NCBI GenBank assembly: GCA_963663865.1
Contig: OY760686.1
Span: 2,336,001 to 2,400,000 of the forward strand
Reading direction: 5' to 3'
DNA: 64,000 bases
DNA from: Spirochaetota bacterium
Lineage (GTDB): Bacteria > Spirochaetota > UBA4802 > UBA5550
Program-made: the position numbers and the translations under genes
The notes under the pieces: model-generated
The model's database searches: none
What the model was told of the DNA's origin: nothing
What the model saw: only the letters and a program-made list of their open reading frames with translations
Shown here: positions 8,785-52,897 of the stretch, piece by piece
Numbering within the stretch: position 1 is the stretch's first letter
Layout: every line of letters begins with the position of its first letter

Positions 8785-11091
8785 ATGAAGAGAAAATTCT
8801 CAGTATCTACTTTTCTGCTTTTAGCAGCAGTTCTGCTAAATTTAGGCTGCGGTGATGACAGCGGCCAGAGCAGTACAAAAACAAGATATGAAGCAGATCT
8901 TTCCTTAAACGCCCAAGAAGAGATAGCCCTCTTCAACGATCTGATTGACAGCTACAGAAACTGCACGGAGGAAGAGCTGTATCAGATGTACCCCGCCGCT
9001 GAATATGGGCAGAGTCCTTCGTACAGCGCCGATGATGTTCTCTACCTGACATCAAACAATGTCGGATCCGGAGTTGATGCTGAAACAGCCTTCGATATGA
9101 CTCCAGAGGTAAAATCTGCTGTTCTCAACAAAGGCTTTGCCGTGGACGGCTCTCAGCGTTTCAATAACCCGCTGTCAATCTACAGAAAGGTATTTAAAAA
9201 CGACCTCCCGGTCCTAATAACCACTGACTCCATCCTTCATGCGTGGCATAAATCCTATGACGACATGCTCAAGGAGATTGAAACCTATCTGCTGACAGAG
9301 ACTCTCGCAAACTATATCTCTGAAATCAGGTCGTCAATCCCGGAGAGCTTATCGAACAACACTGAAAAAGAGGTCTATCGTGACATAGACGTTCTCTTCT
9401 CGGTTACCTTCGCCCTTCTGGGAAAAACTGCGGAACCATACGCGGTAATGTCAGAAAATGAGGACTTTGTTAATGAATTAACAACAAAATGCCTCAAGGC
9501 TGAAGGGGCTGAAGATATTGAAATATTTGGAGAAAAAAGAAAACAGTTTGATTTCACTATGTTTAAACCAAGGGGACACTATACAGAAAGCGAAGTGCTT
9601 TCAAACTATTTCAGGGCCGTGACATGGCTCGGCCGGATGAACTTAATGGTCTTTGACTCGCCGAGGCAGTTTCGAATGGCACAGGTCCTTTCGACCATGC
9701 TTCCGGAGGAAAGCCGGAGGCTTCAGGGCATCAAAGAGATGGACAATCTTCTGGGAGCGCTTGTCGGACCCAACGACTCCATGACCCCCATGGAGATGCG
9801 TATTTTTTCAACTGATCACTCCATCGAATCAGCGCATAAGCTTGATGCTGAAGAGATTTCTTTTCTTCAGGGTTAACTCAAAAAAGAAGGCTATGGACAA
9901 CAGCTTATTATATCACAGTATCTTAATACCAACCCCTGGTCCTCTGAACCGCAGGAGTACCCTTTATCCTTCACTGTCCTCGGCCCGCGTTACACAGTTG
10001 ACTCAGAGGTCTTCTCAAACGTGGTCTATGACAGAATAATTGTCGACGGTGAAAAAATTAAGCGCGCTCTTCCGGCCGCGTTTGACGCCATGTTTGCTTT
10101 AGGGGACAATCTGGCCCTTGAGTTGCTTTCCGACGAGCTGGACAGATACAACTATTCCGGAAACCTCGCCAGCATGAGAAAGATAATTGAAACACACGAT
10201 GAAGCCTTCTGGGCAGGAAGCGTATATCACAGCGCTCTTAAAAATCTGGATAACACCAGGACTATTTCAGAAAGTGCGCCCGCTGTTTTCCAGCAGAAGC
10301 CCTGGGCAATGAAGATGCTCTCCACACGTCTCGGTTTCTGGTCACAGCTCAGGCACGACAACATGCTATATATAAAACAATCTTTTTCCGGTGGCTACGT
10401 ATGCGAATATCCGGATGGCTATGTCGAGCCGTATCCCGATTTTTACAGGGGCCTTGCTGAAATGTCGCAGAAACTGAAAACAGTTTTGGAGGGCTACCTG
10501 GCTGCTGTTGATCTTTCACATTCAGCTTCTTCATACGATTCTCCTGAAAGAGTTAAGACCCGGCTATTACAATATCTCTCCAATGTGTCTTCAGCATGCA
10601 ACACCCTTGAATCCATTTCACAGAAAGAACTCAAGGGAGAAACACTTGATTCAGACGAAACGGCTTTTATTAAAAACTGGTACAGGGAAGAATCGTTTAA
10701 CAACTGTGTTCCTTCTACATCGTATTCGGGTGAATACTTCAAAATGTATTACAGCACCTATACTGGAGAAGTTTGGATGAATTCTAATCAAGATCCATTT
10801 TTCTTTAACTTCGAACCTGAAATAGCTGACGTACACACTTGTCCTGAAAGCCCTTCCTTCCCTTTTAAGGTCCTTAGTGTAGCAACCGGAGGGGCTCTCC
10901 CCATATTCGCAGCTGTTGAAAACCCTCTGGGCGATGTTGTCCTGTACACCGGGGCTGTCTACGATTACTACGAGTTTTCTGACGGCAAGCGCTACAGCGA
11001 CGAGGAATGGGAAAGCCTTTTTGAATCGGGAACAGTCCCGGACAAGCCTTCGTGGATGAATGACTCAGAGGGAGGTTACATCACCTACTGA
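8785..11091 (+). pseudogene. DUF3160-like lipoprotein interrupted by one in-frame TAA at 9874-9876
   Basis: ORFs 8785-9876 and 10021-11091 are in the same frame. The intervening codons read LKKEGYGQQLIISQYLNTNPW... and align with the intact paralogue. Lipobox LGC; motifs ITTDSILH, FKPRGHYT, WSQLRHD, GYVEPYP, IADVHT. Confidence 0.85.
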
Positions 11092-11143
11092 GTTTAACGA
11101 TATATCTTCCGGCATTGCCGTCCCGAAAGGGGCGGCATTTTTT
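10885..11143 (+). repeat. 259-bp exact direct repeat, copy 1 (3' end of DUF3160 gene plus terminator)
   Basis: Identical to 13403-13661 by manual comparison. Confidence 0.95.
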
Positions 11144-11145
11144 TT
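11116..11145 (+). terminator. Intrinsic terminator
   Basis: TGCCGTCCC-GAAA-GGGGCGGCA followed by T8. Confidence 0.9.
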
Positions 11146-11242: not shown

Positions 11243-13609
11243 ATGAAAACTGTAAAATTTTCTTTCCTTTTGGTTTTATTTCCAATACTATTTCTAAACG
11301 GCTGCAACAACTCTGACAAAACGGTTACCAATCCGGATCCTATGGTAAATGATACCGCGGGACAGAATGATGAAGCAGCATATAAAGATGACGAATCTGC
11401 CTATTCTGCCATGAACTCATCCTTCACTGTTACCAAAGATCAGCTCTCCGAAAACGCACAGAATGAAATCACAGGGTTTAGTGATTTTATTGACTCCTAC
11501 AGAAACCTCACAAAATCAGAGATTGACGAGATGTACCCTGTTCCAGGCTATTCCGAAGCACCGTCATACAACGAGGACGATATTTTATACTTAACATCCA
11601 ACAGTACAGCCAGCGGTGTTGACGCTGAAACAGCATTCGATATGACACCTGAAGTGAAATCAGCAATTCTGAGCAGGGGGTTTGCAGTAGATGGGGGGCA
11701 AATACATAACAACCCGCTTTCCATTTACAAGAAGGTATTCCAGAATGACCTGCCGGTTCTTGTGACCACAGATGCGGTCCTTCATGCATGGCACAAATCA
11801 TACGCCGATATGCTCGAAGATATTGACAATGGTCTTTCATACAAACTTGAAGATGGATTGAATGAATTACGTTCAGCAATACCGGATGAATTTTCCAGCG
11901 ATGAAGAATACCTTGCCTATCTCGACATTGACCTTCTTATTTCTACTGCATCAGCACTTCTTAATCCGAGCTCTGGCACCTATGCAGTTTTAAGTGAAAA
12001 TATTAATAAAATTGATTCCTTTATCAGCAAATGTACAAACGCAGAAGATACTGACGATGTTTATGCTTTCGGCCAGATTCGTAAAAATTTTGATTTCACA
12101 AACTTTAAACCAAGAGGATATTACACAAACTCAGAAAGGCTCTCAAACTACTTCAGGGCATTCACCTGGCTAAGCTCCATGGACATCAGGGTTTACGACT
12201 CTGTCAGGCAGTTCAGGATGGCACAGACACTTTCCAAAATGCTTTCTGCAAATGAAACAGCATATTCTAACATTCATGCAATTAACACTGTGTTGAACAG
12301 CCTTGTCGGCCCTGTAGATGCAATGACTCCATTTGAAATGATCACATTCTCCGAAGAGCACTCAATATCATCATCTATCGATATGTCAGATGATGATATA
12401 CTGGCACTTCAGAAAACACTTCTTACTGAAGGCTACGGCCAGCAGCAGATTATCTCTCAATACCTTGAGACAAATCCATTCAGTGACAAAACTGAAGAGT
12501 ACCCCATGAGCTTTGTTTTTCTTGGAAAGAGATACACTGTAGACTCCGAAGTCTTTTCAAATGTTGTCTATGACAGAATAATATATAACGATAAAAAGGT
12601 TGCCAGGATGCTGCCGTCTTCGTTTGACGCTATGTTCGCCCTTGGTGATAATCTTTCACTTGAGCTTCTCTCAGAAGAACTTGATACCTTTAACTATGCA
12701 GGCAACCTTGCAGCGATGAGAAAAATCATTGAGACAAAGGATGATGACTTCTGGTCAGAAAGCCAATATCACGCAACATTAAAAAATCTGGAAAAATTAA
12801 GATCAACCTCCGAAAGTGCCCCTCAGGTTTTCAGACAGAAGACATGGGCTAAGAAAATGCTGGCCGCACAGCTCGGATACTGGTCTCAACTTCGACATGA
12901 TAACATACTATATGTCAAACAATCCTCTTCAGGTGGGTATTTATGCGAGTACCCTGACGGTTATGTTGAACCATATCCTGAATTTTACACAGGAATGGCC
13001 AATTTGTGCAGTCTATTAAAAGATATTTTTGATGAGAATGAAATATCGGATCTCAATACTTCTTTCCTGGATAATTTCAGTTCATTATGCCTGACCCTTG
13101 CCTCAATATCTGAAAAAGAATTAGCCGGAGAAACATTATCGGAAACTGAAACATCATTTCTGCAAAGCTGGTTCAAAGAGGAACCTATTTCAAATTGTGT
13201 TCCCACAACCCGCTACACTGGGAAATATTTCCAAATGTATTATTCAATTCAGAAATACATGTATAGCTACAGTGCAGGAAATGATTATTATTATGATTAC
13301 ATGGGAGAAAACCCGCCATTTTTCGACCTCGAACCGGAAATAGCAGACGTTCATACATGTCCTGAAAGCAATCTGAGTCCTCTGGAAATACTCAGCGTTG
13401 CTACCGGAGGGGCTCTCCCCATATTCGCAGCTGTTGAAAACCCTCTGGGCGATGTTGTCCTGTACACCGGGGCTGTCTACGATTACTACGAGTTTTCTGA
13501 CGGCAAGCGCTACAGCGACGAGGAATGGGAAAGCCTTTTTGAATCGGGAACAGTCCCGGACAAGCCTTCGTGGATGAATGACTCAGAGGGAGGTTACATC
13601 ACCTACTGA
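11243..13609 (+). CDS. DUF3160-like lipoprotein (intact paralogue, 788 aa)
   Basis: Lipobox LNGC; VTTDAVLH, FKPRGYYT, WSQLRHD, GYVEPYP, IADVHT motifs; GAGGAG RBS. Confidence 0.85.
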   Translation: MKTVKFSFLLVLFPILFLNGCNNSDKTVTNPDPMVNDTAGQNDEAAYKDDESAYSAMNSSFTVTKDQLSENAQNEITGFSDFIDSYRNLTKSEIDEMYPVPGYSEAPSYNEDDILYLTSNSTASGVDAETAFDMTPEVKSAILSRGFAVDGGQIHNNPLSIYKKVFQNDLPVLVTTDAVLHAWHKSYADMLEDIDNGLSYKLEDGLNELRSAIPDEFSSDEEYLAYLDIDLLISTASALLNPSSGTYAVLSENINKIDSFISKCTNAEDTDDVYAFGQIRKNFDFTNFKPRGYYTNSERLSNYFRAFTWLSSMDIRVYDSVRQFRMAQTLSKMLSANETAYSNIHAINTVLNSLVGPVDAMTPFEMITFSEEHSISSSIDMSDDDILALQKTLLTEGYGQQQIISQYLETNPFSDKTEEYPMSFVFLGKRYTVDSEVFSNVVYDRIIYNDKKVARMLPSSFDAMFALGDNLSLELLSEELDTFNYAGNLAAMRKIIETKDDDFWSESQYHATLKNLEKLRSTSESAPQVFRQKTWAKKMLAAQLGYWSQLRHDNILYVKQSSSGGYLCEYPDGYVEPYPEFYTGMANLCSLLKDIFDENEISDLNTSFLDNFSSLCLTLASISEKELAGETLSETETSFLQSWFKEEPISNCVPTTRYTGKYFQMYYSIQKYMYSYSAGNDYYYDYMGENPPFFDLEPEIADVHTCPESNLSPLEILSVATGGALPIFAAVENPLGDVVLYTGAVYDYYEFSDGKRYSDEEWESLFESGTVPDKPSWMNDSEGGYITY

Positions 13610-35722: not shown

Positions 35723-35723
35723 G

Positions 35724-35749: not shown

Positions 35750-35772
35750 TAAGCATTCATTATTGATTACGA

Positions 35773-35979
35773 TTAGTGCTCGCCGTTGAGCTCTGCTATC
35801 ATCTTGTTCAGTGTGGCCTCATCAAGCCCGTGAGCCATTACTCCCTGCTCAATTGTTTCAACAGTGCTGATGTGGCAGCCGATGCAGTGAAGACCATATC
35901 GAGCAAGTATGGCTCCAGCCTCCGGATTGTTCTTGATAAGTTCACCGAAAGTCATATCCTTATGTACCCTGACTGGCAT
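35773..35979 (-). CDS. DUF1858 / hybrid-cluster-associated redox disulfide domain protein
   Basis: KDMTFGELI...YGLHCIGC...ETIEQGVMAHG. Confidence 0.88.
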   Translation of the reverse strand: MPVRVHKDMTFGELIKNNPEAGAILARYGLHCIGCHISTVETIEQGVMAHGLDEATLNKMIAELNGEH

Positions 35980-36049
35980 AAGCGTCCCCCTCTATTATGG
36001 ATGCCTAAGAAAACTATGCTTTGTTCCGTTCTTCAATGTAATGTTTCGG

Positions 36050-37000: not shown

Positions 37001-37109
37001 AACGTATGCTTCCATTCCATTAAAATTTTTATTATTTTATGTCATGTCGTATGATATGATTACCGATACTTACTCATAGGGATTACTATTTTTTAAAAAA
37101 GCAGGCATA

Positions 37110-39134: not shown

Positions 39135-40510
39135 TGACCCGGCGGATTGTTTCAAACCAAAAACAAGTGCGGAGAGATTCGATGCTAAAAATGAGCCTTA
39201 TGCTTCCCGTCTTTCTAACCGTTATCCCCGCTGCGATCTCGGCTTCTCCGCTCACCTATTCCGATATAAGGGCAGTAAGCGGATCGGGACCGCTCGACGC
39301 GCTGAGAAACCCCGCCCTCATGGCCGCCCTTCCTGAAGGCGACAGGGCCGGAATGAATCTATCCTTTTCACCTGCTCGAATTAACTACAGGCAGAGCTAT
39401 GAACCCTTCATTGAAGCCGAATTCCCCGACCTGACAATGTCTGTGAGAGGCTCTCAGGACGAGAAGGTTATGAACGACGGCAGCTTCTCCGGTACAGTCG
39501 GATATGCTCACACTGGCAGCCTGCTTTCAGCCGGATTCGCGCTCAAGCAGGACATCAGCTCTTCGAGTTTCAGAGACATTCTTAACATTGACCAGAGCGT
39601 TGTATATGCAGACGCCCTGAACCGTTCGCTCAGGGGAAAATCAGAATCGTACAGTATTACAGCCTCACCCGCCCTGTCGATTAAGACAGCCGCTGGTATT
39701 ACTGCCGGACTCTCTGTCATTTACACAGCCGGTTTCGATGAACTCTACAGGTCCGAACACACAAACATCGGCCAGTCCGGATCACTGCGTGAGGACTCCC
39801 TTCACAGTGTTTCTGCCCTGGCAGGGCTCAGCCTTAAGCTGGGACGGCACGAAGCAGGCCTAACCTTCAATTCAGGCGAATACAGCTTCAGCAAATCATC
39901 ATATTCAGGAAATTTCACAGACCGCACCGGCGTCTCTCAAAGTCTGGAGGTTTCAGACTCATTCAACGGCAGCTTCGTCGGCAATCCTGGAGTTACAGCC
40001 GCCTACATGATAAGCTTTTCCGGCGGGACTTCAGCGGCAATTCAGGCTTCATTTTTCAGCGGCTTCGACCGGGAAGAATCAGACCTGAGGCTCTTATCCG
40101 AAGCCTACACGGAGGTAAGACAGAAGACTGAGAACAGCCTGTCCGCCCCCGTTTCACTGGCAGCCGAATTCACTGTTTCACGCGGCCTGCTTCTCGGGTT
40201 TTGCGCTTCATTCAGCTTTACCAGAGTAAAGACAACCGGCGAGTATAATTACGCCTCAACCTGGCGCTATTCCCTGACCGATGACACAGTTCTCAAGGGA
40301 GCGGCCTCGGCCGGGCTTTCCTTTGTTCTTCAGGGAGGCTCGGAATTCACTTTGCTTATGTCAGCTGATATTATCGACACACGTTCAGAAATATCGGCCC
40401 AGGAAACAGCGGCGCTTGATTATACAAATTACAGCAGTATCACCGATACCTCGGCAAGATACATCTCAACCGGGTTTACGCTGCAGGCTGCGTACACCGC
40501 ACCCTTCTGA
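39134..40510 (+). CDS. Putative outer-membrane beta-barrel (FadL-like); start possibly 39182
   Basis: Signal peptide; NPALM motif; alternating strands; C-terminal Phe. Confidence 0.6.
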   Translation: MTRRIVSNQKQVRRDSMLKMSLMLPVFLTVIPAAISASPLTYSDIRAVSGSGPLDALRNPALMAALPEGDRAGMNLSFSPARINYRQSYEPFIEAEFPDLTMSVRGSQDEKVMNDGSFSGTVGYAHTGSLLSAGFALKQDISSSSFRDILNIDQSVVYADALNRSLRGKSESYSITASPALSIKTAAGITAGLSVIYTAGFDELYRSEHTNIGQSGSLREDSLHSVSALAGLSLKLGRHEAGLTFNSGEYSFSKSSYSGNFTDRTGVSQSLEVSDSFNGSFVGNPGVTAAYMISFSGGTSAAIQASFFSGFDREESDLRLLSEAYTEVRQKTENSLSAPVSLAAEFTVSRGLLLGFCASFSFTRVKTTGEYNYASTWRYSLTDDTVLKGAASAGLSFVLQGGSEFTLLMSADIIDTRSEISAQETAALDYTNYSSITDTSARYISTGFTLQAAYTAPF

Positions 40511-40623
40511 AGCGCGAAGATATCTAAAATCGTCTTGACTTCCTGAAGTGCTTCAACAGTATTATATTAATAATTCTTTTGCGGCTCTCACCCGCGCGTC
40601 CCTTTTCAGGAGGTTTTCTGCGA

Positions 40624-42882
40624 ATGCCCGTCGACCACATAAAAATGCTCTGCGACATAAGCGACCTCAACAGCCTCCTCAGTGAAAAGACCTTCACTGA
40701 CTGCCTTCAAAAGGCCGTAGAGATGGTGTCCAGCCATATGAAAGCGGACATCTGCTCCATTTACCTCTACGACGAAGCCTACAACGTATTAACACTCAAG
40801 GCCACAAAGGGACTGAGCACGGACTCTGTGAACAGGATCAAGCTCAAACCCGGCGAAGGGATTGCCGGAACAGCACTGGTTGAGATGCGGTCTATCGCTG
40901 AAGTAAATGCCCGCACAAATCCCAGCTTCAAATCATACCCCGATTCAGGAGAGGCCGGTTTTGACGCGTACCTGGCGGTTCCGATTCTCCGCGGGCGTTT
41001 TAAAATCGGAGTGCTTGTCGTTCAACGCGATTCCAGCAGACCCTTCGTGGAACACGACATAATGGCGCTGCAGGCAACAGCCTCGCAGCTCGCGGCCATG
41101 CTCGAGCACATTAATCTTCTCATGATAACGGACACGGCTTCATCAAAAAGGCACGGAGCGTCCAGGTCAGGGACTTCGTCTTACAGGTTCGTCAAAGCCA
41201 AGTCTGCCTCTGAAGGCATCAAGTTTGCCCCGGCAGTCATCAAAAACGGCGTCAGAAGGCACGGTCCGGCTCTATTTAAAGGCTCGGGTTCCAGGCACAC
41301 GCTTGAAGAATTTGAAAACGCGGCCAGATCAACCGAAAGTCAGCTTGAGGATCTGCAAAAAAAGGTTGAGGAGAAGCTTTCAGACGCTGCCTCTCTCATT
41401 TTTGCTTCACACATACTCATGCTAAAAGACGAGGCTTTTCTCGGAGGAATGCGCCGCCTCATTGAAGGCGGTACGGAACCTGTTAAGGCAGTTATCGCTG
41501 TTTTTGAAAAATACAAGCGCATATTCTCACAGAGTCCCAATCACCTCATACGCGAAAAGGTACAGGACATTGAGGATCTGACCGTAAGGCTTCTCGACAA
41601 TCTGACCCAGTCCGAAACGGAAGAAACTGCCTATGAAGGCAAAATTGTCATAGCTTCCGAGCTGTTTCCCTCAGACCTGCTCAAGCTCTCCGCTGAAGGT
41701 ATAGCCGGGGCTGTCCTGGTGAGCGGAGGCGTAACCTCTCATGTGGGCATTCTCGCCCGCTCGCTCCGTCTGCCGCTCGTGATAGTTGATGAACCTGACC
41801 TCATGAACCTTCCGGGCGACACCCCGATCCTGCTTGACGCTGATATGGGCAACATCTACCTGAATCCCGGAGTGGACATTCTCGACCGATTCAGTGGAAG
41901 GTTGAAAGAAAAGACAGGAGCGGATTCTGCAATAGACATTATCCCCGGTTCCTGCTTTACCGCTGACGGCACAAGGGTTTACATAAGGCTGAATATCAAC
42001 CTCCTGTCAGACCTCAGTCAGCTGAATATTGATGATTTTGACGGCGTCGGGCTCTACCGGACCGAGTTCCCGTTTATGATTCGCAACGGCTTCCCCTCTG
42101 AGGAGGAGCAGTTCTTCATCTACAAAAAGCTCATCGACGGACTTGATGGAAGACCGGCTACAATCCGCACGCTGGACATAGGCGGAGACAAGGTACTCTC
42201 CTACTACGATCTCCAGAAAGAGGATAATCCCTTCCTTGGCATGAGATCAGTAAGATTTTCTCTTGCACATATCGACATATTCAAGCAGCAGATCAGGGCA
42301 ATTCTAAGAGCAGGCCACGGCTCCGACCTGAGGATAATGTTCCCGATGATTTCATCGCTCGACGAATACCTCAGAGCGCGCAACGTAGTTGAAAGCTGCA
42401 TGGATGAGCTTTCCGCGAACTCATACCAGTTCAACACCTCTCCCAAAATAGGCATGATGATTGAGATTCCTTCACTCATCGGGATTATCGACGAAATGGC
42501 TGCTGAAACAGACTTCATGTCGATAGGCACAAACGACCTGATTCAGTACACAATAGCCGTAGACAGAACCAACGAAAAGGTCTCGGATATGTATCTCCCG
42601 CATCATCCTTCAATACTTCGTTCCATAGCCCGCATATCCGAGGCATGCAGCAGAGCCGGAATAGAGGTGTCTGTATGCGGAGATATGGCAAACCGTGAGA
42701 AATACATTCCCTTTCTCCTTGGCGTGGGGATAAGCTCGCTCAGCATGGATGCTGTCTATATTCCGAGAATAAAAAAAGAAGTAGGCACGCTTTCCATGAA
42801 AGAATGCGCCAGAATTGCCGAAAGACTCCTGTCGACCGGCAGAATATCTGAAATTGAGAGCATCTTAAACGGAACGGTTTAA
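40624..42882 (+). CDS. ptsP: PEP-protein phosphotransferase EI-Ntr with N-terminal GAF
   Basis: GAF domain; GGVTSHVGILARS phospho-His motif; GVGLYRTEF, SIGTNDLIQY; AGGAGG RBS. Confidence 0.93.
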   Translation: MPVDHIKMLCDISDLNSLLSEKTFTDCLQKAVEMVSSHMKADICSIYLYDEAYNVLTLKATKGLSTDSVNRIKLKPGEGIAGTALVEMRSIAEVNARTNPSFKSYPDSGEAGFDAYLAVPILRGRFKIGVLVVQRDSSRPFVEHDIMALQATASQLAAMLEHINLLMITDTASSKRHGASRSGTSSYRFVKAKSASEGIKFAPAVIKNGVRRHGPALFKGSGSRHTLEEFENAARSTESQLEDLQKKVEEKLSDAASLIFASHILMLKDEAFLGGMRRLIEGGTEPVKAVIAVFEKYKRIFSQSPNHLIREKVQDIEDLTVRLLDNLTQSETEETAYEGKIVIASELFPSDLLKLSAEGIAGAVLVSGGVTSHVGILARSLRLPLVIVDEPDLMNLPGDTPILLDADMGNIYLNPGVDILDRFSGRLKEKTGADSAIDIIPGSCFTADGTRVYIRLNINLLSDLSQLNIDDFDGVGLYRTEFPFMIRNGFPSEEEQFFIYKKLIDGLDGRPATIRTLDIGGDKVLSYYDLQKEDNPFLGMRSVRFSLAHIDIFKQQIRAILRAGHGSDLRIMFPMISSLDEYLRARNVVESCMDELSANSYQFNTSPKIGMMIEIPSLIGIIDEMAAETDFMSIGTNDLIQYTIAVDRTNEKVSDMYLPHHPSILRSIARISEACSRAGIEVSVCGDMANREKYIPFLLGVGISSLSMDAVYIPRIKKEVGTLSMKECARIAERLLSTGRISEIESILNGTV

Positions 42883-42909
42883 CCGCGCCATTCGCCCCCC
42901 CTTTTTACC

Positions 42910-42938
42910 TTGACCACTGTGTAACTATATGCCATAAT
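42910..42938 (+). promoter_or_regulatory. Sigma70-type promoter of the GH15-otsAB operon
   Basis: TTGACC-17 bp-CATAAT; an imperfect inverted repeat spans the -10 box. Confidence 0.55.
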
Positions 42939-43025
42939 CAGGCACATAGTTGTTACGTACATGCGTTTTGATATCCACAGGTATCAGGAAGAAACAGCTT
43001 AAAGACAACGTCACGAGGTTTGAAC

Positions 43026-44804
43026 ATGAGAAAAGACCCCAAGTACTCTATGGGGATAGTAGGGAACTGCTCTTACATCGCCTATATTGACACAAATGCA
43101 GGCGTTAGATGGATGTGTATGCCCCGTTTTGATTCCAGTTTTGTATTCGGTTCACTTTTGGACAAGGAAAAGGGTGGAGAATTCAGCGTGAGGCCCGCGG
43201 GCAAGGGTTACACCTCGACACAGAGATATATGCCCAACACGAATATTCTGATAACCGAGTTTAAAACAAACGACGGACGTTTCAGGGTAATTGACTGTGC
43301 TCCGCGTTTCAGACAAAACGACCGCTACTTCAAACCCCTCATGCTCTTCAGAAAGATAGAGCTCCTTGAGGGCTCACCAGTCATCACTGTAAAATGCAGA
43401 CCCGTCGGAGAATACGGCTACACTGAGTCCGAAGCCGTCATGGGAAGCAACCATATACGCTACCTTAACCTTGCCGACATGGTACGACTTACCGCTAATG
43501 TCCCGCTGAACTACATAATTGAGGAAAAGCCCTTTGTCCTCAACGAAGACTCCTATCTCGCCTTCACCTATGGGCTCCCGCTTGAAGCCCCGCTTGCAGA
43601 AACCGCCGATATCTTTATTAAAAAAACCGCTGAATACTGGCGTTCATGGATAAAGTCGACCTCTATACCGGGTATCTTCCAGGAAGAGGTCATCAGATCG
43701 GCCCTCGTTCTGAAGCTTCACCAGTATGAAGACACTGGAGCAGTAATAGCAGCGGGAACGACGAGCCTTCCTGAACACGAAGGATCGGGCAGGAACTGGG
43801 ATTACCGCTATTGCTGGATGCGCGATACCTATTACACCCTGAACGCTTTCAACAACATCGGACACTTTGAAGAGCTTGAACGCTATTTTGAGTTCATCAG
43901 AAACGTCATGATGAACGAAAACGAGTACATCAGCCCGCTCTACACCGTCCTGGGAGAGAGGGTTCCTTCGGAAAAATACCTCAACCTCTATGGTTTTCAC
44001 GGCAACACGCCCGTCAGGATTGGAAACAACGCCAATGGCCAGATACAGAATGACGTATACGGACAGATTCTCGTGAGCCTGCTTCCGCTGTTTGTGGACA
44101 GAAGACTGAGCCTTCCAAGGGGAGCATCGCCCGAACCGGTCGTTTCCTGGCTTCTCGCCCGCATCGAAAAGACCATGGACTCATACGATTCCGGCCTATG
44201 GGAATTCGGCGTAACAAAGCAGCAGCACCTCTACACCTATCTATTTCACTGGGCAGGCTGCATGGCTGGAATAAGGATAGGCAACATGCTTACAGACTCA
44301 ACCATAAGCGAGAAATCAGCAGCCCTTGCTCAGAAGGCGCGCGATTACATTGAAAAATGCTACGACGAAAAAAGAGGCGTTTACACCCAGGCGGTCGGAA
44401 GCGCTCATCTCGACGCCAGCTCCCTTCAGCTTGTTACCATGAACTATCTCGACCCGTCTTCAGACAGAGCTATCGCTCACATCAATGCCCACGAGGAGGA
44501 GCTGTTCTCTGAAAGGGGGCTTTACTTCAGATATAAAAGCGACGACATCGGAAAGCAGGAGACATCATTTATAATATGCGGCTTCTGGTTCGCGGAAGCT
44601 CTCGCGGCTGCCGGAAAGCTCGAAAAATCGCACGGTGTAATCAGCGAGCTTCTAAGCTGCAGCAATCACCTGGGGCTTTTCAGCGAAGACGGGGACTCGA
44701 GCTGCGGGCAGTGGGGAAACTTTCCGCAGACATACAGTCACGTCGGGCTTGTAAATGCCGTTTACAGACTGGCGAAGAAACTCGATATGCCGATTTTCTT
44801 CTGA
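43026..44804 (+). CDS. Glycoside hydrolase family 15 (trehalase/glucoamylase-like)
   Basis: CMPRFDS, TTSLPE, RNWDYRYCWMRD, GNFPQTYSH motifs. Confidence 0.92.
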   Translation: MRKDPKYSMGIVGNCSYIAYIDTNAGVRWMCMPRFDSSFVFGSLLDKEKGGEFSVRPAGKGYTSTQRYMPNTNILITEFKTNDGRFRVIDCAPRFRQNDRYFKPLMLFRKIELLEGSPVITVKCRPVGEYGYTESEAVMGSNHIRYLNLADMVRLTANVPLNYIIEEKPFVLNEDSYLAFTYGLPLEAPLAETADIFIKKTAEYWRSWIKSTSIPGIFQEEVIRSALVLKLHQYEDTGAVIAAGTTSLPEHEGSGRNWDYRYCWMRDTYYTLNAFNNIGHFEELERYFEFIRNVMMNENEYISPLYTVLGERVPSEKYLNLYGFHGNTPVRIGNNANGQIQNDVYGQILVSLLPLFVDRRLSLPRGASPEPVVSWLLARIEKTMDSYDSGLWEFGVTKQQHLYTYLFHWAGCMAGIRIGNMLTDSTISEKSAALAQKARDYIEKCYDEKRGVYTQAVGSAHLDASSLQLVTMNYLDPSSDRAIAHINAHEEELFSERGLYFRYKSDDIGKQETSFIICGFWFAEALAAAGKLEKSHGVISELLSCSNHLGLFSEDGDSSCGQWGNFPQTYSHVGLVNAVYRLAKKLDMPIFF

Positions 44805-44832
44805 CAGTTCATGCTTTGAAAGGAGATGAGAT

Positions 44833-47043
44833 ATGCCAAAATCCAGGCAATTCAAATACAACCGGCTCATAATCGCGGCCTACAGGCTTCCATTTAAGCT
44901 CGTCAAGAGAAAGGATTCATTCAAGGCGGTGCAGAACGCCGGAGGCCTGGTTTCCGCAATCTTCGCTCTCTCGAAAAAAATGAGCGCCTCAAACAGCATG
45001 TCATCCAAGATAATCTGGATAGGCGAAGGCGATCCCAGGCTCGCTGATGATACCAGCACAGAGTTCCAGCTTCTGCCGGTCAATATCCCCGATAAAATGA
45101 ATGAAAAGTTCTACAGCGGATTCTGCAATAAAACGATATGGCCTCTCTTCCACTACTTCACCTCAATTTCGCGTTTTGACTCGTCGTTCTACGAGGAGTA
45201 CCGCAACGCGAACGCTATTTACTACGAAGAGCTGAAAAAAATCATTCAGCCCGGCGACTTTATCTGGGTCCACGATTACCATCTTTTCTTTCTGCCCGAA
45301 ATGATCAGAAAGGATTTTCCTGAACAGGACATCGGCTTTTTTCTTCACATCCCATTCCCATCCTTTGAGGTTTTCAGGATAATGCCGAGAGAATGGAGGC
45401 GCGGTATAATCAATGGTATGCTCGGCTCTGATTTGATCGGCTTTCACACGAACGATTACGCTCAGCATTTTCTCAAATCTGTAAGGCGGACACTGGGTTA
45501 CGACATAAGAGATAACTACATCCGTTACGAGGACAGGCTTATACGGGCTGATGCGTTTCCTATAGGCATTGATTACCAGAAATTCCACAGCGCGACCGCC
45601 GCAAAAGCCGTCGGCAGAGAGAAAGAAAAACTGTTGAAACAGCTTTCGGGGAAAAAACTTATTTTCTCTGTTGACCGCCTCGATTACACGAAGGGACTGC
45701 TCACCAGACTCCTTGCTTATGAGCGCTTTCTCGAAAAACACAGTGAATGGCACGAAAAAACTGTTTTCAATATGGTTGTCGTTCCCTCCAGAGATAACAT
45801 TGACAGATACAAAAAAATCAAGAGAGAGATTGATGAAAATGTCGGGCGCATAAACGGCCGTTTCAGCACCATCTCGTGGAGACCGATCATCTATCAGTAC
45901 AAGTCGCTGAGCTTCAATGAGCTTGTTGCACTTTACAATCTCAGCGATGTCGGGCTGATTACACCTATCCGTGACGGAATGAATCTTGTCGCGAAGGAGT
46001 ATATCGCCTGCCAGACAGACGATCCCGGAATGCTCATACTCTCGGAGATGGCCGGCGCAGCTGCCGAGTTGACCGAGTCAATGATAATCTCGCCATACGA
46101 CATTGAGGAAACAGCCGACACTGTCCATGAGGCCCTCAAGCTCAGCGGAAACGACAAAAGCTCCAGAATATCCATCATGCAGAACCGTATCAGCCGCTAC
46201 AACGTATTCACATGGGCGATGCACTTTTTCAACCAGGCAGGCGAAGTAAGAATGGCGCAGAAGAAACTCAGTGTAACATATCTAAACAAAGAAAAAATAT
46301 CTGAGATGAGAAAAATGTACTCATCCTCATCAAAGCGAATATTCTTTATTGACTATGACGGAACATTAGTCCCCCTCGAGAAATATCCCGAAAGGGCGGC
46401 AATAAACGCCTCCGCCGTAAAGACCGTCGAGTTCCTTTCCTCTGACCCTCTCAACAGGGTAATAGTCATCAGCGGCCGGGAAGCAGCCTTTCTGGAAAAA
46501 CAGTTTAAGAACATGAATGTAACCCTCGTCGCGGAACACGGCTATCTGACACGGGAACCCGGACAGGAGTGGACGGCTCAGAAAAGGGACATCAACCTCG
46601 GATGGAAGGACAAGATAATGCCCCTTTTGAATGAATATGTAGACAGGCTTAACGGCACTTTCATTGAAGAAAAGAAAGCCTCTTTAGCCTATCACTACAG
46701 GAACGCCGATCCTGACTACGCTTCAATACGGATAAACGATCTCAAATTTGATCTGGCGGATATCCTCAAGGATGAACCAAAGCTTCAGCTTATTGAAGGC
46801 CATAAAGTCGTCGAGATCAAGAGCGTTCTCTACGACAAGGGAACTGCGGCAGCGTCCTTTCTCAAGCGGGGCGAATACGATTTCATCTTTGCGGCAGGCG
46901 ATGACAGAACCGATGAGGACATGTTCGCGGTAATGCCTGAAAACGCTGTTACGCTGAAAATCGGGGCTGATCCTTCAAACGCCAGGTTTAATCTGAAGAA
47001 TCAGGCTGAGGTTTACGGCTTTTTTAGTATGCTCGCGGAGTAA
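44833..47043 (+). CDS. otsAB: Bifunctional trehalose-6-phosphate synthase/phosphatase (OtsA-OtsB fusion)
   Basis: WVHDYHL, FLHIPFP, VDRLDYTKG, DGMNLVAKEY; HAD motifs DYDGTL and GDDRTDEDMF. Confidence 0.95.
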   Translation: MPKSRQFKYNRLIIAAYRLPFKLVKRKDSFKAVQNAGGLVSAIFALSKKMSASNSMSSKIIWIGEGDPRLADDTSTEFQLLPVNIPDKMNEKFYSGFCNKTIWPLFHYFTSISRFDSSFYEEYRNANAIYYEELKKIIQPGDFIWVHDYHLFFLPEMIRKDFPEQDIGFFLHIPFPSFEVFRIMPREWRRGIINGMLGSDLIGFHTNDYAQHFLKSVRRTLGYDIRDNYIRYEDRLIRADAFPIGIDYQKFHSATAAKAVGREKEKLLKQLSGKKLIFSVDRLDYTKGLLTRLLAYERFLEKHSEWHEKTVFNMVVVPSRDNIDRYKKIKREIDENVGRINGRFSTISWRPIIYQYKSLSFNELVALYNLSDVGLITPIRDGMNLVAKEYIACQTDDPGMLILSEMAGAAAELTESMIISPYDIEETADTVHEALKLSGNDKSSRISIMQNRISRYNVFTWAMHFFNQAGEVRMAQKKLSVTYLNKEKISEMRKMYSSSSKRIFFIDYDGTLVPLEKYPERAAINASAVKTVEFLSSDPLNRVIVISGREAAFLEKQFKNMNVTLVAEHGYLTREPGQEWTAQKRDINLGWKDKIMPLLNEYVDRLNGTFIEEKKASLAYHYRNADPDYASIRINDLKFDLADILKDEPKLQLIEGHKVVEIKSVLYDKGTAAASFLKRGEYDFIFAAGDDRTDEDMFAVMPENAVTLKIGADPSNARFNLKNQAEVYGFFSMLAE

Positions 47044-47066
47044 ACCCCCTTCAGGCTGTACTAAAC

Positions 47067-47093
47067 ACGTCTCCGCGCGACCCGCGGAGACGT
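47067..47093. terminator. Strong hairpin after otsAB
   Basis: ACGTCTCCGCG-loop-CGCGGAGACGT; no clear U-tract. Confidence 0.55.
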
Positions 47094-47276
47094 AATCTGC
47101 GTGCGAGTGTCAATCTTCATCTGTTTTTTCCTTGCCTAATATACAGCTGAATCAATATTTATCCTGACAACCTGGTCAACTACCGGGCACAGCAGGGAGC
47201 AGCGCGTCTTTTAACTGTTTTTCCGGATACGCTAGGTCAGAATACTATAAAACAATTGTTCCCGGTCACGGTTTAA

Positions 47277-48512
47277 ATGAAAACATCAAAAACACCTGAA
47301 ATCCTCTCGCCGGCAGGAAGCCTTGAGAAACTAAAGTTCGCGGTCCACTACGGCGCTGACTCAGTCTACCTGGGAGGAGAGGCCTTTAACCTGCGTTCAA
47401 GGGCCGGAAACTTCACCGAGGCCGAACTGGAAGAGGCCTCCGAGTTCTGCAGACAGCGGGGAGTAAAAACCGTGTTTCTCATGAACGCCTTCCTGCATGA
47501 AGATGACCTCGATATGGTCAGAACCTATATCAGCTCTGTGAAAAAATTCCGCTTTGACGCTGTAATGGTATCTGATCCCGGAATGCTTTACATGCTCCGT
47601 GACGAAGGCATCGAAAGCGAGATTCACCTGTCCACCCAGATGAACACTCTCAACCACCTCGCTGTAAGGTTCTGGCAGGAAGCCGGTTTCTCAAGGATAG
47701 TCCTGGCCAGGGAAACCACGCTTGATGAAATAAAAAAAATCAGGGAGCACACTGACATCGAACTTGAGGCATTCATCCACGGGGCGCTGTGCGTCGCCTA
47801 CTCCGGGAGATGTTTGCTCAGCCGCTACATGACCGGCAGAGACGCCAATCAGGGAGACTGTGTTCAGCCCTGCCGCTGGAACTACGCGCTCGTAGAGGTA
47901 AAACGCCCGGGAAACTATCTTGACATTCGTGAGCACGCGAGAGGAACCGAGATTCTTTCGTCAAAGGACCTCTGCCTCATTGAGCACCTCGATGAATACA
48001 CCTCCGCTGGAGTAGATGTATTCAAGATTGAGGGCCGCATTAAATCCATCTATCACGCGGCTAACACAACAAGAATATACCGCGACGCGAGGGACAGCAT
48101 TGGAACCGACCGGTTCAAGGCGGACATGCCGTTCCGCCTTTCAGAGCTTGACCTTGTCAGCCACCGGCCCTATACCGACAACCTTTTCAATGAGTTCAAC
48201 GGCATGGAGTTTACAGGGATTCCCTATGTGAACAAAACACTTTTCATGGGCTGTAAAACCGGTACCGGATTAGATAAACGTGAGGCTGAAATCAAGGTCT
48301 TCAATCCCATAAGGCCCGGCGATACGATGGACGCCATTTTCCCGATTCACAGCGGGGTCGTAAGGGACAGGGCTTTCTCTGTGCTTAAAATTACTGACAG
48401 TGAAGGCGAAGATGTTTCCATAGCCATTCCCGGTAAAACATACAATATCAAATTCGACGCTGACATGGACGATCATGCCATTTTGCGTCAAAGAACAGAT
48501 TCTGACAGATAA
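47277..48512 (+). CDS. U32 family protein (TrhP/YegQ-like tRNA hydroxylation)
   Basis: PEILSPAG, HLSTQ, HGALCVAYSGRCLLS, CVQPCRW, KIEGR motifs. Confidence 0.9.
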   Translation: MKTSKTPEILSPAGSLEKLKFAVHYGADSVYLGGEAFNLRSRAGNFTEAELEEASEFCRQRGVKTVFLMNAFLHEDDLDMVRTYISSVKKFRFDAVMVSDPGMLYMLRDEGIESEIHLSTQMNTLNHLAVRFWQEAGFSRIVLARETTLDEIKKIREHTDIELEAFIHGALCVAYSGRCLLSRYMTGRDANQGDCVQPCRWNYALVEVKRPGNYLDIREHARGTEILSSKDLCLIEHLDEYTSAGVDVFKIEGRIKSIYHAANTTRIYRDARDSIGTDRFKADMPFRLSELDLVSHRPYTDNLFNEFNGMEFTGIPYVNKTLFMGCKTGTGLDKREAEIKVFNPIRPGDTMDAIFPIHSGVVRDRAFSVLKITDSEGEDVSIAIPGKTYNIKFDADMDDHAILRQRTDSDR

Positions 48513-48521
48513 GGAGATACC

Positions 48522-49769
48522 ATGATTCATAAAGCGCCCGGCGTTGAGGATATATTCCCGGATAAAATCGACAGATGGAACCTTGTTCAGAACACAGCCC
48601 GCGAAGTCTTCAAAAGATACAACTACAGGGAGATAATATTCCCGATAATGGAATATACCGAGGTATTTTCACGAGGCCTCGGCGACGAAACGGATATTGT
48701 TTCCAAGGAGATGTTTACGTTTGAGGACAGGGGCGGCAGAAGCCTCACACTACGGCCTGAAGGCACTGCTTCGGTCGTCAGGGCCTATGTTGAAAACGGG
48801 GAATTCAACCGGCTTGCGATTAACAAGTTTTTCTACTCCGGCTCAATGTTTCGCGCAGAAAGGCCTCAGCGGGGACGCCTTAGACAGTTCAACCAGATAG
48901 GTGCTGAACTCTTCGGAGGGTCAGATCCCTACTATGACTACGAGATTATTGCAATGATCCGCGACATTGCCGACAGCATTGGAATAAAGGACTATACCGT
49001 TCTAATCAACTCAATTGGCTGTCCAGAATGCCGTTCCGGGTATATTTCCAGGCTCAGAGAGTACTACACCGGCAAAGTGGATGAGCTTTGCGCGGACTGC
49101 CGCAAGAGGCTCTCCGGAAACACTTTACGGCTTCTTGACTGCAAGCAGGAAAAATGTGGCATATTGAAATCCGAAGCGCCCCTCATAACAGACTTTCTTG
49201 ACGATGAGTGCAGAGAGCATCATGAGAAGCTTAAATCCTACCTCGACAATGCGGGTATTGCATATCGGGAAGATCCTTATCTTGTCAGGGGGCTTGACTA
49301 CTACAACAGGACAACCTTCGAGTTTGTCTCTGCCGCTCTGGGCGGACAGAACGCATTCGCGGCAGGCGGCCGCTACGACAGCCTCGTTGAACAGTTTGAA
49401 GGCAGTCCGACTCCGTCGGTCGGTTTCGCTGCTGGTGTTGAGCGCATGCTCCTGCTGATTGAAGATAGAGAAGTTGAAAAATCAGGAATTGCCGCCTTCA
49501 TTGTACATACCGGAGGACCCGCGCTTGAGGCCGCCACTGATCTCGCCGCAAAGCTTCGAAGTGCAGGAATTTCAACCGATCTGGACCCGGCATCGAAGGG
49601 ATTCAAAGCGCAGTTCAAGCGTGCCGACCGTGAAAACGCCAGATTTGCTGTTGTAATCGGAGAAGATGAACTTACGGCTAAGAAATACACCGTCAAAGAC
49701 CTCCATTCGGGGGAACAGAAAAATCTCACACAGGAAGAACTTTTTTCGTTTCTGGGGGAATCTCAGTGA
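48522..49769 (+). CDS. hisS: Histidine-tRNA ligase
   Basis: LRPEGTA, FRAERPQRGRLRQFNQ, VRGLDYY, GGRYD motifs. Confidence 0.97.
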   Translation: MIHKAPGVEDIFPDKIDRWNLVQNTAREVFKRYNYREIIFPIMEYTEVFSRGLGDETDIVSKEMFTFEDRGGRSLTLRPEGTASVVRAYVENGEFNRLAINKFFYSGSMFRAERPQRGRLRQFNQIGAELFGGSDPYYDYEIIAMIRDIADSIGIKDYTVLINSIGCPECRSGYISRLREYYTGKVDELCADCRKRLSGNTLRLLDCKQEKCGILKSEAPLITDFLDDECREHHEKLKSYLDNAGIAYREDPYLVRGLDYYNRTTFEFVSAALGGQNAFAAGGRYDSLVEQFEGSPTPSVGFAAGVERMLLLIEDREVEKSGIAAFIVHTGGPALEAATDLAAKLRSAGISTDLDPASKGFKAQFKRADRENARFAVVIGEDELTAKKYTVKDLHSGEQKNLTQEELFSFLGESQ

Positions 49770-49776
49770 GATTTTC

Positions 49777-49802
49777 ATATCCCGCTCATGCGAGCGGGAT
49801 AT
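49777..49802. terminator. Hairpin between hisS and the convergent island gene
   Basis: ATATCCCGCTC-ATGC-GAGCGGGATAT. Confidence 0.7.
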
Positions 49803-49823
49803 TCTGACATCAAATTCAAATTA

Positions 49824-50891
49824 TCACTGATACACCAGAGCATCAACTGAGATTTGATAGCATGCTTCGCCATCACAATCGACATCTGGAACAGTCCATT
49901 CACCGTTTTTGTAATAGCCGCCAATAGTATAAGTGTGACCTTCATCGCCTGATTCATAGTCGTAAGACAAATCAGCAGATATGTATACATCGGTATCTGT
50001 AACAACCAGGGATGTTAGATCAGCATGTCCTGTATAGGTATTTTCCAATGTTATATTTTCGTCCGGGTAATCATAAGGAGTCCATACCGAGTCATGCCAC
50101 AAGCCGGGTGTTAAAAAATCTGCAGATGCAGCGATATATATTCCATTGTTATTTACAACTATTCTATGGCACACCCCTGACCCTGTTTGCAAAGTGTCAA
50201 TTGGTATCCATTCACCATTCTTCCAATAGCCGCCTGAATTGCCGACTTGAGAATTGTAAATACTACCGCATGCATAAATATCGCTGTTATACTTGCATAT
50301 TCCTGTCACACTTCCAGTATATTCAAGGCTGTCGTCGGGGAGAGCGAGAGAAATATATTCACCATTATGGTAGTATGCCGGTTTATTGTTATATCTGCCT
50401 CCGATATAAATATCGCTGGCATCTCCGCAGAATGACCTGACGCTAAAGTTAGTATCAAGTTGTGTTACAGAATCATTCAAAAAGAAATAATTGGGGGAAA
50501 TAATGCCGTAAATATTGTTGTTGCTTGCTGCTATGCCTGTGACACTGCGATGGATATCTTCGTCAAGATATTTCCATTCCCCATTAGTCCAGTATCCGGG
50601 AGTTATAGACTCATCCGAAGAATTGGCCGCTCCTCCTATATACAGATTCGCTCCATCGATTGCAGCACAGTAAACATAAGGACTTGAAGGAGCGGTTGGG
50701 CTTGAATCAGAGAGAGAAAAGAATTCTCCATCATGATACCATCCAGCAGGATCTTCAGAACTGGACTTGTTTAGTATTATATATAGTCCTGAAAGTGGGT
50801 CTTCTGAAGTTTGATTGTTGTTATCGTTATCATCACAGAATATATTTGGAAGCAGTAATGTGATTAGTAGTAATTTTGTAATTGATTTCAT
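49824..50891 (-). CDS. Lipoprotein with six G(Y/W)(W/Y)xNG repeats (beta-propeller-like)
   Basis: ATG 50891 after GGAG; spirochaete-like lipobox NIFC; repeats GWYHDG, GYWTNG, AYYHNG, GYWKNG, GLWHDS, GYYKNG. Confidence 0.8.
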   Translation of the reverse strand: MKSITKLLLITLLLPNIFCDDNDNNNQTSEDPLSGLYIILNKSSSEDPAGWYHDGEFFSLSDSSPTAPSSPYVYCAAIDGANLYIGGAANSSDESITPGYWTNGEWKYLDEDIHRSVTGIAASNNNIYGIISPNYFFLNDSVTQLDTNFSVRSFCGDASDIYIGGRYNNKPAYYHNGEYISLALPDDSLEYTGSVTGICKYNSDIYACGSIYNSQVGNSGGYWKNGEWIPIDTLQTGSGVCHRIVVNNNGIYIAASADFLTPGLWHDSVWTPYDYPDENITLENTYTGHADLTSLVVTDTDVYISADLSYDYESGDEGHTYTIGGYYKNGEWTVPDVDCDGEACYQISVDALVYQ

Positions 50892-50917
50892 AAGTATTCT
50901 CCAATAAATTCCATTTT

Positions 50918-52897
50918 TCAGTAGAATGTTACATACAGGTTGTAATCTCTGCAAACAACCCAAGGATAAACACCTACAGCATTCCATGCGTCACAAATAG
51001 CGAATCCAGTATTTACAAAAGTAGAAGTGTCCATTCCATTTCCATAATTGTATTCATCGCAAAGAGCCCAGAGCCATGCATTAGCTGAGTCGAGAAATGT
51101 CGCATCAGAAGATAAATAGTTGATTAAAGCGCTCATGGCTATTTTACCAGCTGCCTGAATACCTATACCGTTAACTGAGTAAGTAATTCCTGCTTCATTA
51201 GTCCCTGAGCCACCTTCGCTTAGCAGATAAAATGCATAGCTTTGGACCATTGACCTTGCATAATCTCCTGCTCCATAATTGTTAGTGAGGTTCCAGTTCT
51301 CTCCATTATAATAATCTAAACCGTAAATTCACGTTGCGATTTCAGACCCCTCTGGATTTCTCAAATCTCTTGAAGCTATTATTGAAATCCATGAGTCTTC
51401 ACCCAAATACCAGTCAAAATGTCCGGGAATAACATCAGGATATACTGAAGTTCCGTCTGGTTGATAATAGTTTTCAACTATAACGGAAAATATATCAGAG
51501 TAAGACTCATTTAGAGCCATTGACTCTGCATTGTAAACGTAAGTCAAGTTTGATGAAAAGTTTGTAATGGCATGACAAAATTCGTGAGCTACTACATCAA
51601 GAGTAGCTGTAGCTGCTCGGTCGGCAGTTGGCCTGTAAAAATAGAATGCACAAAATGGATACGGTTGAGTTCTTTCATAAAATCCACCAAAATTTGTATC
51701 GATATATTGTGTGTTAAGTTCTGAATCAATATATAATACTGCAGGACATGACACTTCTATTCCCAATTCTGAATCATAGTTGTTATTATTAAAACTATTT
51801 CTTCCTAAGACATCATGTGTGTATTGCATGACCCTGGTGATATTGTACGCTGCCGATACAGCTGAAGAGGAAATATTCGAATCCTCAAGTTCAGACTCTG
51901 TAAATGAAACAATATAACCTACAGATTTATAATCATTATAATTTGTGTAATTAGCATTTTCTGGAAATAAATCACATATTTTAATAATAAATCTTTTATA
52001 TGTATTAGAGCTGTTGGTTTGTAGATTTTGAAATATATACGACTCGGTTCCTTCAATAATATCATAGCAGTAACCACCTGAGCCCGTTATACCGTCATAA
52101 CCGAGTAGTGCGGGGAAACTGACTGTACTACTACTGTTTCTTTCACCTTCAAGAAGATAACCACTGGCGGTTATTGGTTCCGTGAAATATGCGACAGGAT
52201 CATCTTTCATTTCCGTTGCAATATATTTATTATCAACTTCAGAACCGTTTTGTGCATCTACATATAACAAACATGTTTTGTTTGGTTCAATTTCGGTATT
52301 TATGTAGTAAATTTCATGACACAACAACGCATTTTTGATTACAAGCCGAACGCTGTCTTTGTCTATATATGGGAATTCACTTTCATGGGTTTCCTCTACC
52401 AGAGAAATGGCCTCTTCAGCAGTTATACCAAGTTTGATTGAAAGTCCTTCAACTTCAAGCATTTTGCCATGAATAAAATACACTTCACCTTTAGGGCTTG
52501 TATGTTCTAACAGCTCTGCTCCAATAACTTCCAAGCCTTTATAGTACTGCTTGTATCTCTTATGAGTGATACCAATTGTATCAGTGTCGGAAGTCTTTTC
52601 AAGTGCTTCTGAATCAAACTGCTCCATCAGTTGCGGGATTGTTTCCTTGTCGAGCTCAAGGGCGTCTGTCGAATTTGAAGTCAATATGGCTTTGGCTGGT
52701 AATTTTGTTATTGCTGCTGACATGTCGCCTGATCTGATAAATATCTCTGAAAGACCATTGGTGTTAATTGCAGATTTTTTGGCTGTTTCCACTCTGCTGC
52801 TACACGAAGTTGAAATTGCTGTTAATAAAAGAATAATAGAAATGAACGAAAAACGAAGAATTGGGAATCGGGAATCATAAAAACCTCCATAAGGCAT
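50918..52897 (-). pseudogene. M4 metalloprotease lipoprotein with one in-frame TGA (51329-51331)
   Basis: STSC lipobox; FTP-like propeptide; VVAHEFCH; ALNESYSD. After the TGA the frame continues IYGLDYYNGENW...SMVQSYAFYLLSEGGSG to 50918. Confidence 0.88.

Follow-up and report, generated by a model that had tools for sequence, protein, structure and literature searches.

Four predicted surface-lipoprotein genes of a free-living Spirochaetota bacterium, one of the DUF3160 family and three encoding thermolysin-family (M4) proteases, each carry exactly one in-frame stop codon, and they are probably ordinary, very recent, strain-specific nonsense pseudogenes in non-essential, redundant and fast-changing lipoprotein families. 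The genes lie in a stretch of 64,000 nucleotides, referred to here as the window, which corresponds to positions 2336001-2400000 of a one-contig genome of 3,156,400 bp (45.9% GC). Under this interpretation three point mutations, one in the DUF3160 gene, one in a tandemly duplicated M4 gene and one in a divergent M4 gene, would have become fixed in one strain, and the codons lost at the two M4 positions would be those of a sister strain, TAC and GGN.

Four lipoprotein genes are interrupted by a single stop codon

Translation of the window placed the stops at the positions given in the initial annotation of this DNA, and the four genes are as follows. Their products are predicted lipoproteins, an assignment made for all genes concerned from N-termini read by eye (a hydrophobic stretch, then a cysteine).

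8785-11091, + strand: DUF3160 lipoprotein gene, 768 codons; single TAA at 9874-9876; Pfam PF11369 on both sides of the stop
32034-30322, - strand: M4 (thermolysin-family) lipoprotein protease, copy A; single TAA at 30841-30843; from translation and Pfam
35263-33551, - strand: M4 protease, copy B; single TAA at 34070-34072; same sequence as copy A
52897-50921, - strand: divergent M4 lipoprotein protease; single TGA at 51329-51331; Pfam families on both sides of the stop

The DUF3160 profile (PF11369, 632 positions) is matched from 6 to 256 before the TAA and from 282 to 632 after it, so that the match spans positions 6-632 with one TAA inside. This TAA falls in a variable column of the alignment, where the nearest relative, P0105, has a glutamate. 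In M4 copies A and B, the FTP, PepSY and Peptidase_M4 domains lie upstream of the TAA and Peptidase_M4_C lies downstream, and in all three M4 genes PF01447 and PF02868 score over the cut-off, one on each side of the stop. The HEXXH motif is visible in the translations as HEFSH and HEFCH. All three therefore hold the domains of the family, and none has an uninterrupted frame with all catalytic parts, each being broken by its one in-frame stop.

No second stop and no frameshift was found within the family-homologous span of any of the four genes, and no homopolymer or short repeat was found at the stops. The initial annotation had described the genes as free of frameshifts and further stops, with family motifs kept up to the natural end. 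Both descriptions were borne out, by Pfam matches on both sides of every stop and by M4 read-throughs that equal intact proteins of the sister strain in length. Long open reading frames (ORFs) in other frames after the M4 genes were considered as continuations of the proteases and rejected, as they are separate genes: a leucine-rich repeat (LRR) lipoprotein gene after each tandem copy, and a gene without a Pfam family after the divergent M4 gene. Because M4 copies A and B are identical, the pair counts as a single mutation, which makes three independent events in the window, as had been proposed.

Intact M4 orthologues are present in a sister strain

The 90% clusters of the truncated products hold full-length members encoded on a 1,388,793-bp contig of another assembly, referred to here as the sister strain. 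The sister orthologue of the tandem M4 gene (P0083, 568 amino acids) is intact and has a tyrosine at the position of the TAA, and the orthologue of the divergent M4 gene (P0087, 659 amino acids) is likewise intact, with a glycine at the position of the TGA. Both have the same length as the read-through of the window gene and align to it without gaps, at 97.5% and 96.4% identity. These values lie within the range of the surrounding genes, as identity between the two strains is 95.8-99.4% for seven neighbouring proteins; an eighth neighbour pair was left out because it came from a different contig of 44.6 kb. Both M4 events thus show what defines a nonsense pseudogene, a stop here where a close relative has an intact orthologue. 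For the DUF3160 gene, the best sister protein is 72% identical.

Public sequencing runs were used for a further comparison. For 9 kb of the window, a listing gave thirteen runs, none of them of RNA, and 12 of these hold at least part of it. Contigs of four of them (X1, X3, X6 and X7) were compared with window positions 33000-52900; being contigs, they would not show rare alleles. X1 and X3 belong to separate studies, and X7 to a third. In X7 the plus strand has a G at 34070, so the coding strand reads TAC (Tyr) there, and the replacement differences at codons 474, 476 and 477 are the same as in P0083, so X7 holds the sister strain or one like it. The main strain of X7 joins position 49780 to 50830, and so skips 1049 bases and with them the gene without a Pfam family beside the divergent M4 gene. 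The run also has a 1195-base contig identical to the window (49751-50945), with a depth of 3.5, whereas the main strain reaches about 40. The window strain and the sister strain both seem to be present in the X7 sample.

The breaks in the M4 genes are, on this sequence comparison, recent. Replacements between the strains were judged no denser downstream of the stops than upstream, with 10 in 394 codons before and 4 in 173 after the stop of the tandem M4 gene, and 17 in 522 before and 7 in 136 after that of the divergent gene. Against X7, the 173 codons after the M4 TAA contain 11 synonymous and 3 replacement codons, for 112 synonymous and 407 non-synonymous sites; the fourth downstream replacement, known from P0083, lies too close to the contig end to be in the X7 list. 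So few replacements after the TAA indicate that the downstream part was under purifying selection for nearly the whole time since the strains split. The comparison with close relatives and of synonymous and non-synonymous change (dN/dS) beyond the stops, which the initial annotation had suggested, thus yielded intact M4 genes in the sister strain and mostly synonymous differences downstream.

More distant genomes gave little to compare. In a species-representative set of which 41 genomes were searched, this genome is the sole member of its genus and no close relative was found. Metagenome-assembled genomes of Spirochaetota encode proteins 59-61% identical to the DXS protein of this genome. A related-locus search with half of the DUF3160 gene as query found no relative.

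The interrupted alleles and the tandem unit in public contigs

X1 and X3 each contain a 2893-base contig across position 34070 in which no letter differs from the window. The divergent M4 gene with its TGA at 51329 is covered by pieces of the same two runs (36891-52900 and 43200-52900), again with no differing letters, and X1 and X3 therefore hold the same clone, without a difference from the window over 9.7-16 kb in two studies. Only the stop allele is carried by these contigs, from which rare variants are dropped. A piece from X6 starts 28 bases from 34070 and was left out as bridging evidence. The stops of the three M4 genes are not assembly errors. For the DUF3160 stop at 9874, a 30-base exact search of JGI metagenome contigs returned no matches, which leaves the assembly as its source.

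The tandem M4 copies belong to a larger duplication, and their downstream LRR genes are part of it:

29222-35557, no strand: tandem duplication of two 3229-bp units, each with an M4 and an LRR gene (blastn, 98.3% over 3108 nucleotides)
29276-30322, - strand: LRR lipoprotein gene A, Pfam LRR_4 and LRR_EndoS; separate gene downstream of M4 copy A
32505-33551, - strand: LRR lipoprotein gene, copy B; second copy, downstream of M4 copy B

Between 32328 and 29874 the units are identical (100%), an interval that takes in the whole M4 gene and its upstream region; they differ by one base (29873), by a patch within the LRR gene (29447-29600) and at the unit end. The depth of the repeat unit is 1.6-2 times that of its flank in X1 (16.7 against 10.4) and X3 (6.23 against 3.1), which fits two real copies. 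In X7 the unit has about 1.1 times the depth of the flank, which points to a single copy in that strain. The unit may have been duplicated after the M4 gene was broken, or the two copies may have been homogenised afterwards. Close to the array, window positions 36200-36950 reach 3-7 times the flanking depth in each of the four runs, and many joints and loose ends occur there. Such a pattern points to an element that is multi-copy or widely shared, situated between the M4 array and the gene that follows. Its three ORFs matched no Pfam family.

The stops would remove catalytic parts of the tandem M4 protease

The intact M4 protein of the sister strain aligns to the thermolysin precursor 5a3y_A (E = 1.5e-22). 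In this alignment Tyr395 of P0083, the residue at the stop position, pairs with the tyrosine of the thermolysin segment '...AGLIYQNESGAINEA...' just after HEXXH, which we take to be Tyr157 of mature thermolysin, a residue of the catalytic site. The glutamate of the next motif, NExxSD, is presumably the third zinc ligand. As the NExxSD segment and the whole C-terminal domain of the tandem M4 gene lie downstream of the stop, the truncated protein would be without a zinc ligand and without that domain. The divergent M4 protein would lose its last 136 residues. Translation would end at the stops, and the products are taken to be dead.

The M4 proteins resemble thermolysin and pseudolysin in their FTP/PepSY propeptide, in an N-terminal domain with HEXXH and in an alpha-helical C-terminal domain. 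They differ in having lipoprotein-like N-termini rather than free secretion signals and in being at most 34% identical to any outside protein, and three copies here are cut by stops. In the divergent M4 subgroup, no histidine was seen by eye at the position of the second catalytic histidine of thermolysin.

The M4 family is expanded in this genome and mostly decayed

A search of 40 relatives from the same family and order found no Peptidase_M4_C, and the best outside protein for the M4 family is the one at 34% identity. This genome has 11 Peptidase_M4_C loci, at genome coordinates 265071, 288474, 1101029, 1102668, 1505702, 1509101, 1610190 and 2716523 together with the three in the window. Four of the 11 are intact, three have a stop, one is interrupted and three are C-terminal relics of about 100 amino acids. 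The interrupted locus is separated by 1.3 kb from its own N-terminal part, and the first 32 residues of the locus repeat a sequence that occurs at another place in the genome. The M4 loci of the window have a GC content of 0.38-0.41, against 0.459 genome-wide. Among the genomes searched, only this lineage was seen to carry the family, which would thus appear to have expanded and now to have mostly decayed.

The DUF3160 genes, of which the genome holds two tandem copies only, would form a second family of fast turnover, differing strongly between strains. The intact copy lies directly after the broken one:

11243-13609, + strand: intact tandem DUF3160 paralogue P0088, 788 amino acids, 62% identical overall to the broken gene

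The two DUF3160 proteins of the sister strain have identities of 72% and 54% to the broken gene, and of 52-72% to either window copy, while the genes flanking the pair are about 98-99% identical between the strains. None of the nine DUF3160 matches listed from relatives contains a stop. Two tRNA-Met genes lie at window positions 8515-8681, directly 5' of the pair, and they may mark the boundary of a variable islet.

Single-nonsense genes elsewhere in the genome

The initial annotation had also proposed a genome-wide count of single-nonsense genes by functional class, and this was made in stages. There are 358 in-frame stops with at least 100 open codons on each side, and in 175 of the 358 the same frame scored best on both sides by a home-made coding score. 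The 59 cases without a Shine-Dalgarno-like start within 40 codons were read by eye, the second M4 copy being omitted as a duplicate. Ten doubtful cases were submitted to Pfam, of which two were single broken genes and eight were two different genes or had no family. A complementary screen against paralogues covered 1125 sites, at 54 of which a paralogue spans the stop, with 16 of these in the best coding frame. This screen regained the four window genes, a C10 protease gene and an RHS gene, and added an IS3 transposase; the other readable matches were adjacent genes resembling fused paralogues, or repeats. Two of its sites, 2136995 and 2613707, were judged from start signals only.

About six clean single-nonsense events were counted genome-wide, and as far as seen they affect accessory genes only: the tandem M4 gene, the divergent M4 gene, the DUF3160 gene, the C10 gene, the RHS gene and the IS3 transposase. 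The C10 lipoprotein protease gene (genome positions 1694644-1696194) has one TAG between the I69 propeptide and the catalytic domain, and its homologues at 34-37% identity have both parts in one protein of about 485 amino acids. For the state of the C10 gene in the sister strain, proteins of 284-905 amino acids were searched, and no close full-length protein was found. The RHS-repeat gene (genome positions 1697339-1699645) has one in-frame TAG and lies 3.3 kb from the C10 gene, so that the two form a second small cluster of single-nonsense genes. The copy of the IS3-family transposase at genome position 977816 has TGA where two 98%-identical copies have GGA. At 178871, a pair of ORFs of 78 and 194 codons with an in-frame TAG matches part of a 2121-codon ORF at 78% over 161 amino acids; from this similarity, the pair may represent another damaged copy of a large repeat protein.

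Lesions of other kinds are also present. A tblastn search with 1986 ORFs gave eight frameshift-like junctions at about six loci, in paralogue families; these are candidates, of which perhaps four are credible. The genome has no nonsense-only rule, as frameshift and insertion lesions occur in it too. The three nonsense changes with a readable ancestral codon are all G:C-to-T:A (TAC to TAA, and GGA to TGA twice). A G:C-to-T:A mutator was considered and rejected, since the differences between the window and X7 over positions 33000-52900 have no excess in the matching direction (A>C and T>G 53, against C>A and G>T 68).

Recombination footprints near the interrupted genes

The initial annotation had noted footprints of recombination at the same loci. 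These are real, and none of them covers a stop site. In the DUF3160 pair, the last 297 nucleotides are 90.6% identical, against about 70% in the rest of the gene, a contrast in the alignment that marks the 3' ends as a gene-conversion footprint. The LRR copies differ at residues 242-291 only, where 16 amino acids are changed through 16 replacement codons, with 15 synonymous codons besides. No third donor for this patch was found in the genome, and its sequence suggests the import of a divergent allele more than targeted mutation. A diversity-generating retroelement acting on the patch was rejected, as the 48 differences, inspected by eye, have no adenine-specific pattern and include 15 synonymous codons.

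Discussion

Interpretation of the four genes as young nonsense pseudogenes is probably correct. Like unitary nonsense pseudogenes described elsewhere, they combine a single disabling substitution with redundant paralogues and, for the M4 genes, an intact orthologue in a close strain. Later stages of decay are present in the same family, as relics and an interrupted copy, and the genes lie in low-GC accessory islets. What differs from such pseudogenes is the density, with three events in 44 kb, and the bias to lipoprotein hydrolases.

Several observations weigh against this interpretation. Three of the roughly six nonsense events fall in one 64-kb window, about 2% of the genome, which is above a uniform spread, and four of the six are in predicted lipoprotein genes (M4, M4, C10 and DUF3160), which is more patterned than pure drift would give. 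The census combined a home-made score, reading by eye and ten Pfam checks, and could miss broken single-copy genes. The DUF3160 stop has neither replication nor a close intact orthologue. As the runs were compared by contigs, a minority sense allele could still exist in the population, and X1 or X3 may itself be the source data of the assembly. Ribosomes could also pass beyond the stops, TGA being somewhat leaky as a stop codon. As for the clustering, although it exceeds a uniform spread, low-GC accessory islets are expected to gather pseudogenes, so clustering is expected there.

A refinement of this interpretation, rather than an alternative to it, is that selection drove a parallel shutdown of surface proteolysis, either in a protease-negative 'cheater' living beside a proficient sister or in a habitat where surface proteolysis is useless. 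Three independent events within 44 kb, the fourth broken lipoprotease (C10) elsewhere in the genome and the small share of M4 loci left intact all favour it, as do the recovery of one unchanged clone in runs of two studies and the co-occurrence of both strains in X7. Pseudomonas cheaters are reported to lose secreted-protease production (PMC6629668), and this was counted in its favour. The likeness to the lasR cheaters of Pseudomonas lies in the loss of function in extracellular proteolysis beside proficient relatives; the difference is that structural genes rather than a regulator are affected here, and that the enzymes are apparently anchored to the cell. Lipid-anchored enzymes make poor 'public goods', however, and the numbers are small. 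Proteolysis is not abolished, since four intact M4 paralogues remain, and the lesions in RHS, transposase and frameshifted genes speak of a general decay of accessory genes, while pseudogenes are expected to gather in accessory islets. Selected shutdown is therefore possible but rather doubtful. The same holds, with slightly less confidence, for the more specific idea of a protease-poor lineage ('cheater' or Black-Queen type) that has spread unchanged across two studies and could regain intact alleles from its sister by recombination. The initial annotation had offered recent parallel selection against surface proteins as one explanation; its recent and strain-specific character holds for the M4 genes, and the broken C10 gene extends it, and either selection or drift may have caused the breaks.

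Its other explanation was a reversible or leaky off-state, in which stops would be bypassed by readthrough or RNA editing, or in which paralogues or silent cassettes would serve to repair them through gene conversion, to give a switchable surface repertoire. The presence of one stop in each gene, with the rest of the gene clean, would suit such a switch, as would the purifying-selection signature downstream of the M4 TAA and the nearby footprints at the DUF3160 3' end and in the LRR patch. After the TAA of the DUF3160 gene comes a C, the base found least often behind TAA at the ends of long ORFs (76 of 560). The purifying signature, however, is explained equally well by recency, and the stops are not conserved, as the sister strain has tyrosine and glycine at the M4 positions. 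The same stop is found in contigs of two studies, and the sites have no repeats or homopolymers.

The translation apparatus also argues against bypass. The suppressor tRNA search that had been proposed found none, since no anticodon among the 42 tRNAs reads a stop, and no tRNA-Sec is present among them. RF1 and RF2 are both encoded (two release-factor genes with the PCRF domain). All three stop codons end ordinary ORFs, the 1428 ORFs of at least 300 codons terminating in 560 TAA, 558 TGA and 310 TAG, and the M4 stops stand in TAA-A and TGA-A, the commonest terminator contexts of the genome. An alternative genetic code or suppression is ruled out by this tRNA set, the two release factors and the normal stop usage.

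Donors for repair were sought by blastn (word size 9) with 300 bases on each side of every stop against the whole genome, and at the DUF3160 and tandem M4 stops none was found beyond the gene itself and its tandem twin. The sole paralogue segment to cross a stop, of 245 bases at 73% identity in the divergent M4 gene, is by its divergence evidently far too distant to serve as a conversion donor, and other segments (67-77%) miss the stops. The vlsE system of Borrelia and the tprK system of Treponema are antigenic-variation systems of spirochaetes with silent cassettes. The genes described here share with them the phylum, the character of surface lipoprotein genes, the tandem paralogues and the local footprints of gene conversion. 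They differ in having no array of near-identical donor cassettes, in varying by a stop codon instead of segmental replacement, and in that no within-sample variation was seen in the contigs. A sister strain without the stops, the absence of a suppressor tRNA and of a donor, and the presence of release factors together make a switch of this kind very improbable.

Assembly or consensus error, by which the stops would be artefacts and the true genes intact, is less probable still: polishing errors can yield single-base substitutions and the DUF3160 stop is seen in the assembly only, but independent Logan contigs of X1 and X3, which belong to separate studies, are identical to the window at two of the three events, the M4 stop is present in both tandem copies of a unit with the depth of two, and none of the four genes has an indel, the kind of error of which long-read assembly errors mostly consist. 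Sequencing error is accordingly unlikely for the M4 genes.

Downstream of the divergent M4 gene lies the gene that is skipped in the main strain of X7:

49824-50987, - strand: separate gene without a Pfam family, downstream of the divergent M4 gene; varies between strains

One clean stop per gene resembles a switch, yet it is also exactly how very young pseudogenes look, and the case of these four genes is better read in the second way. The result documents gene loss at the level of strains, in a lineage of the spirochaete group that is uncultured or little sampled. The M4 family has been caught here at every stage of decay, and the sister strain supplies the intact state. If the loss was selected, and if that reading is true, these genes would represent a natural loss of surface or secreted proteases outside laboratory model organisms.

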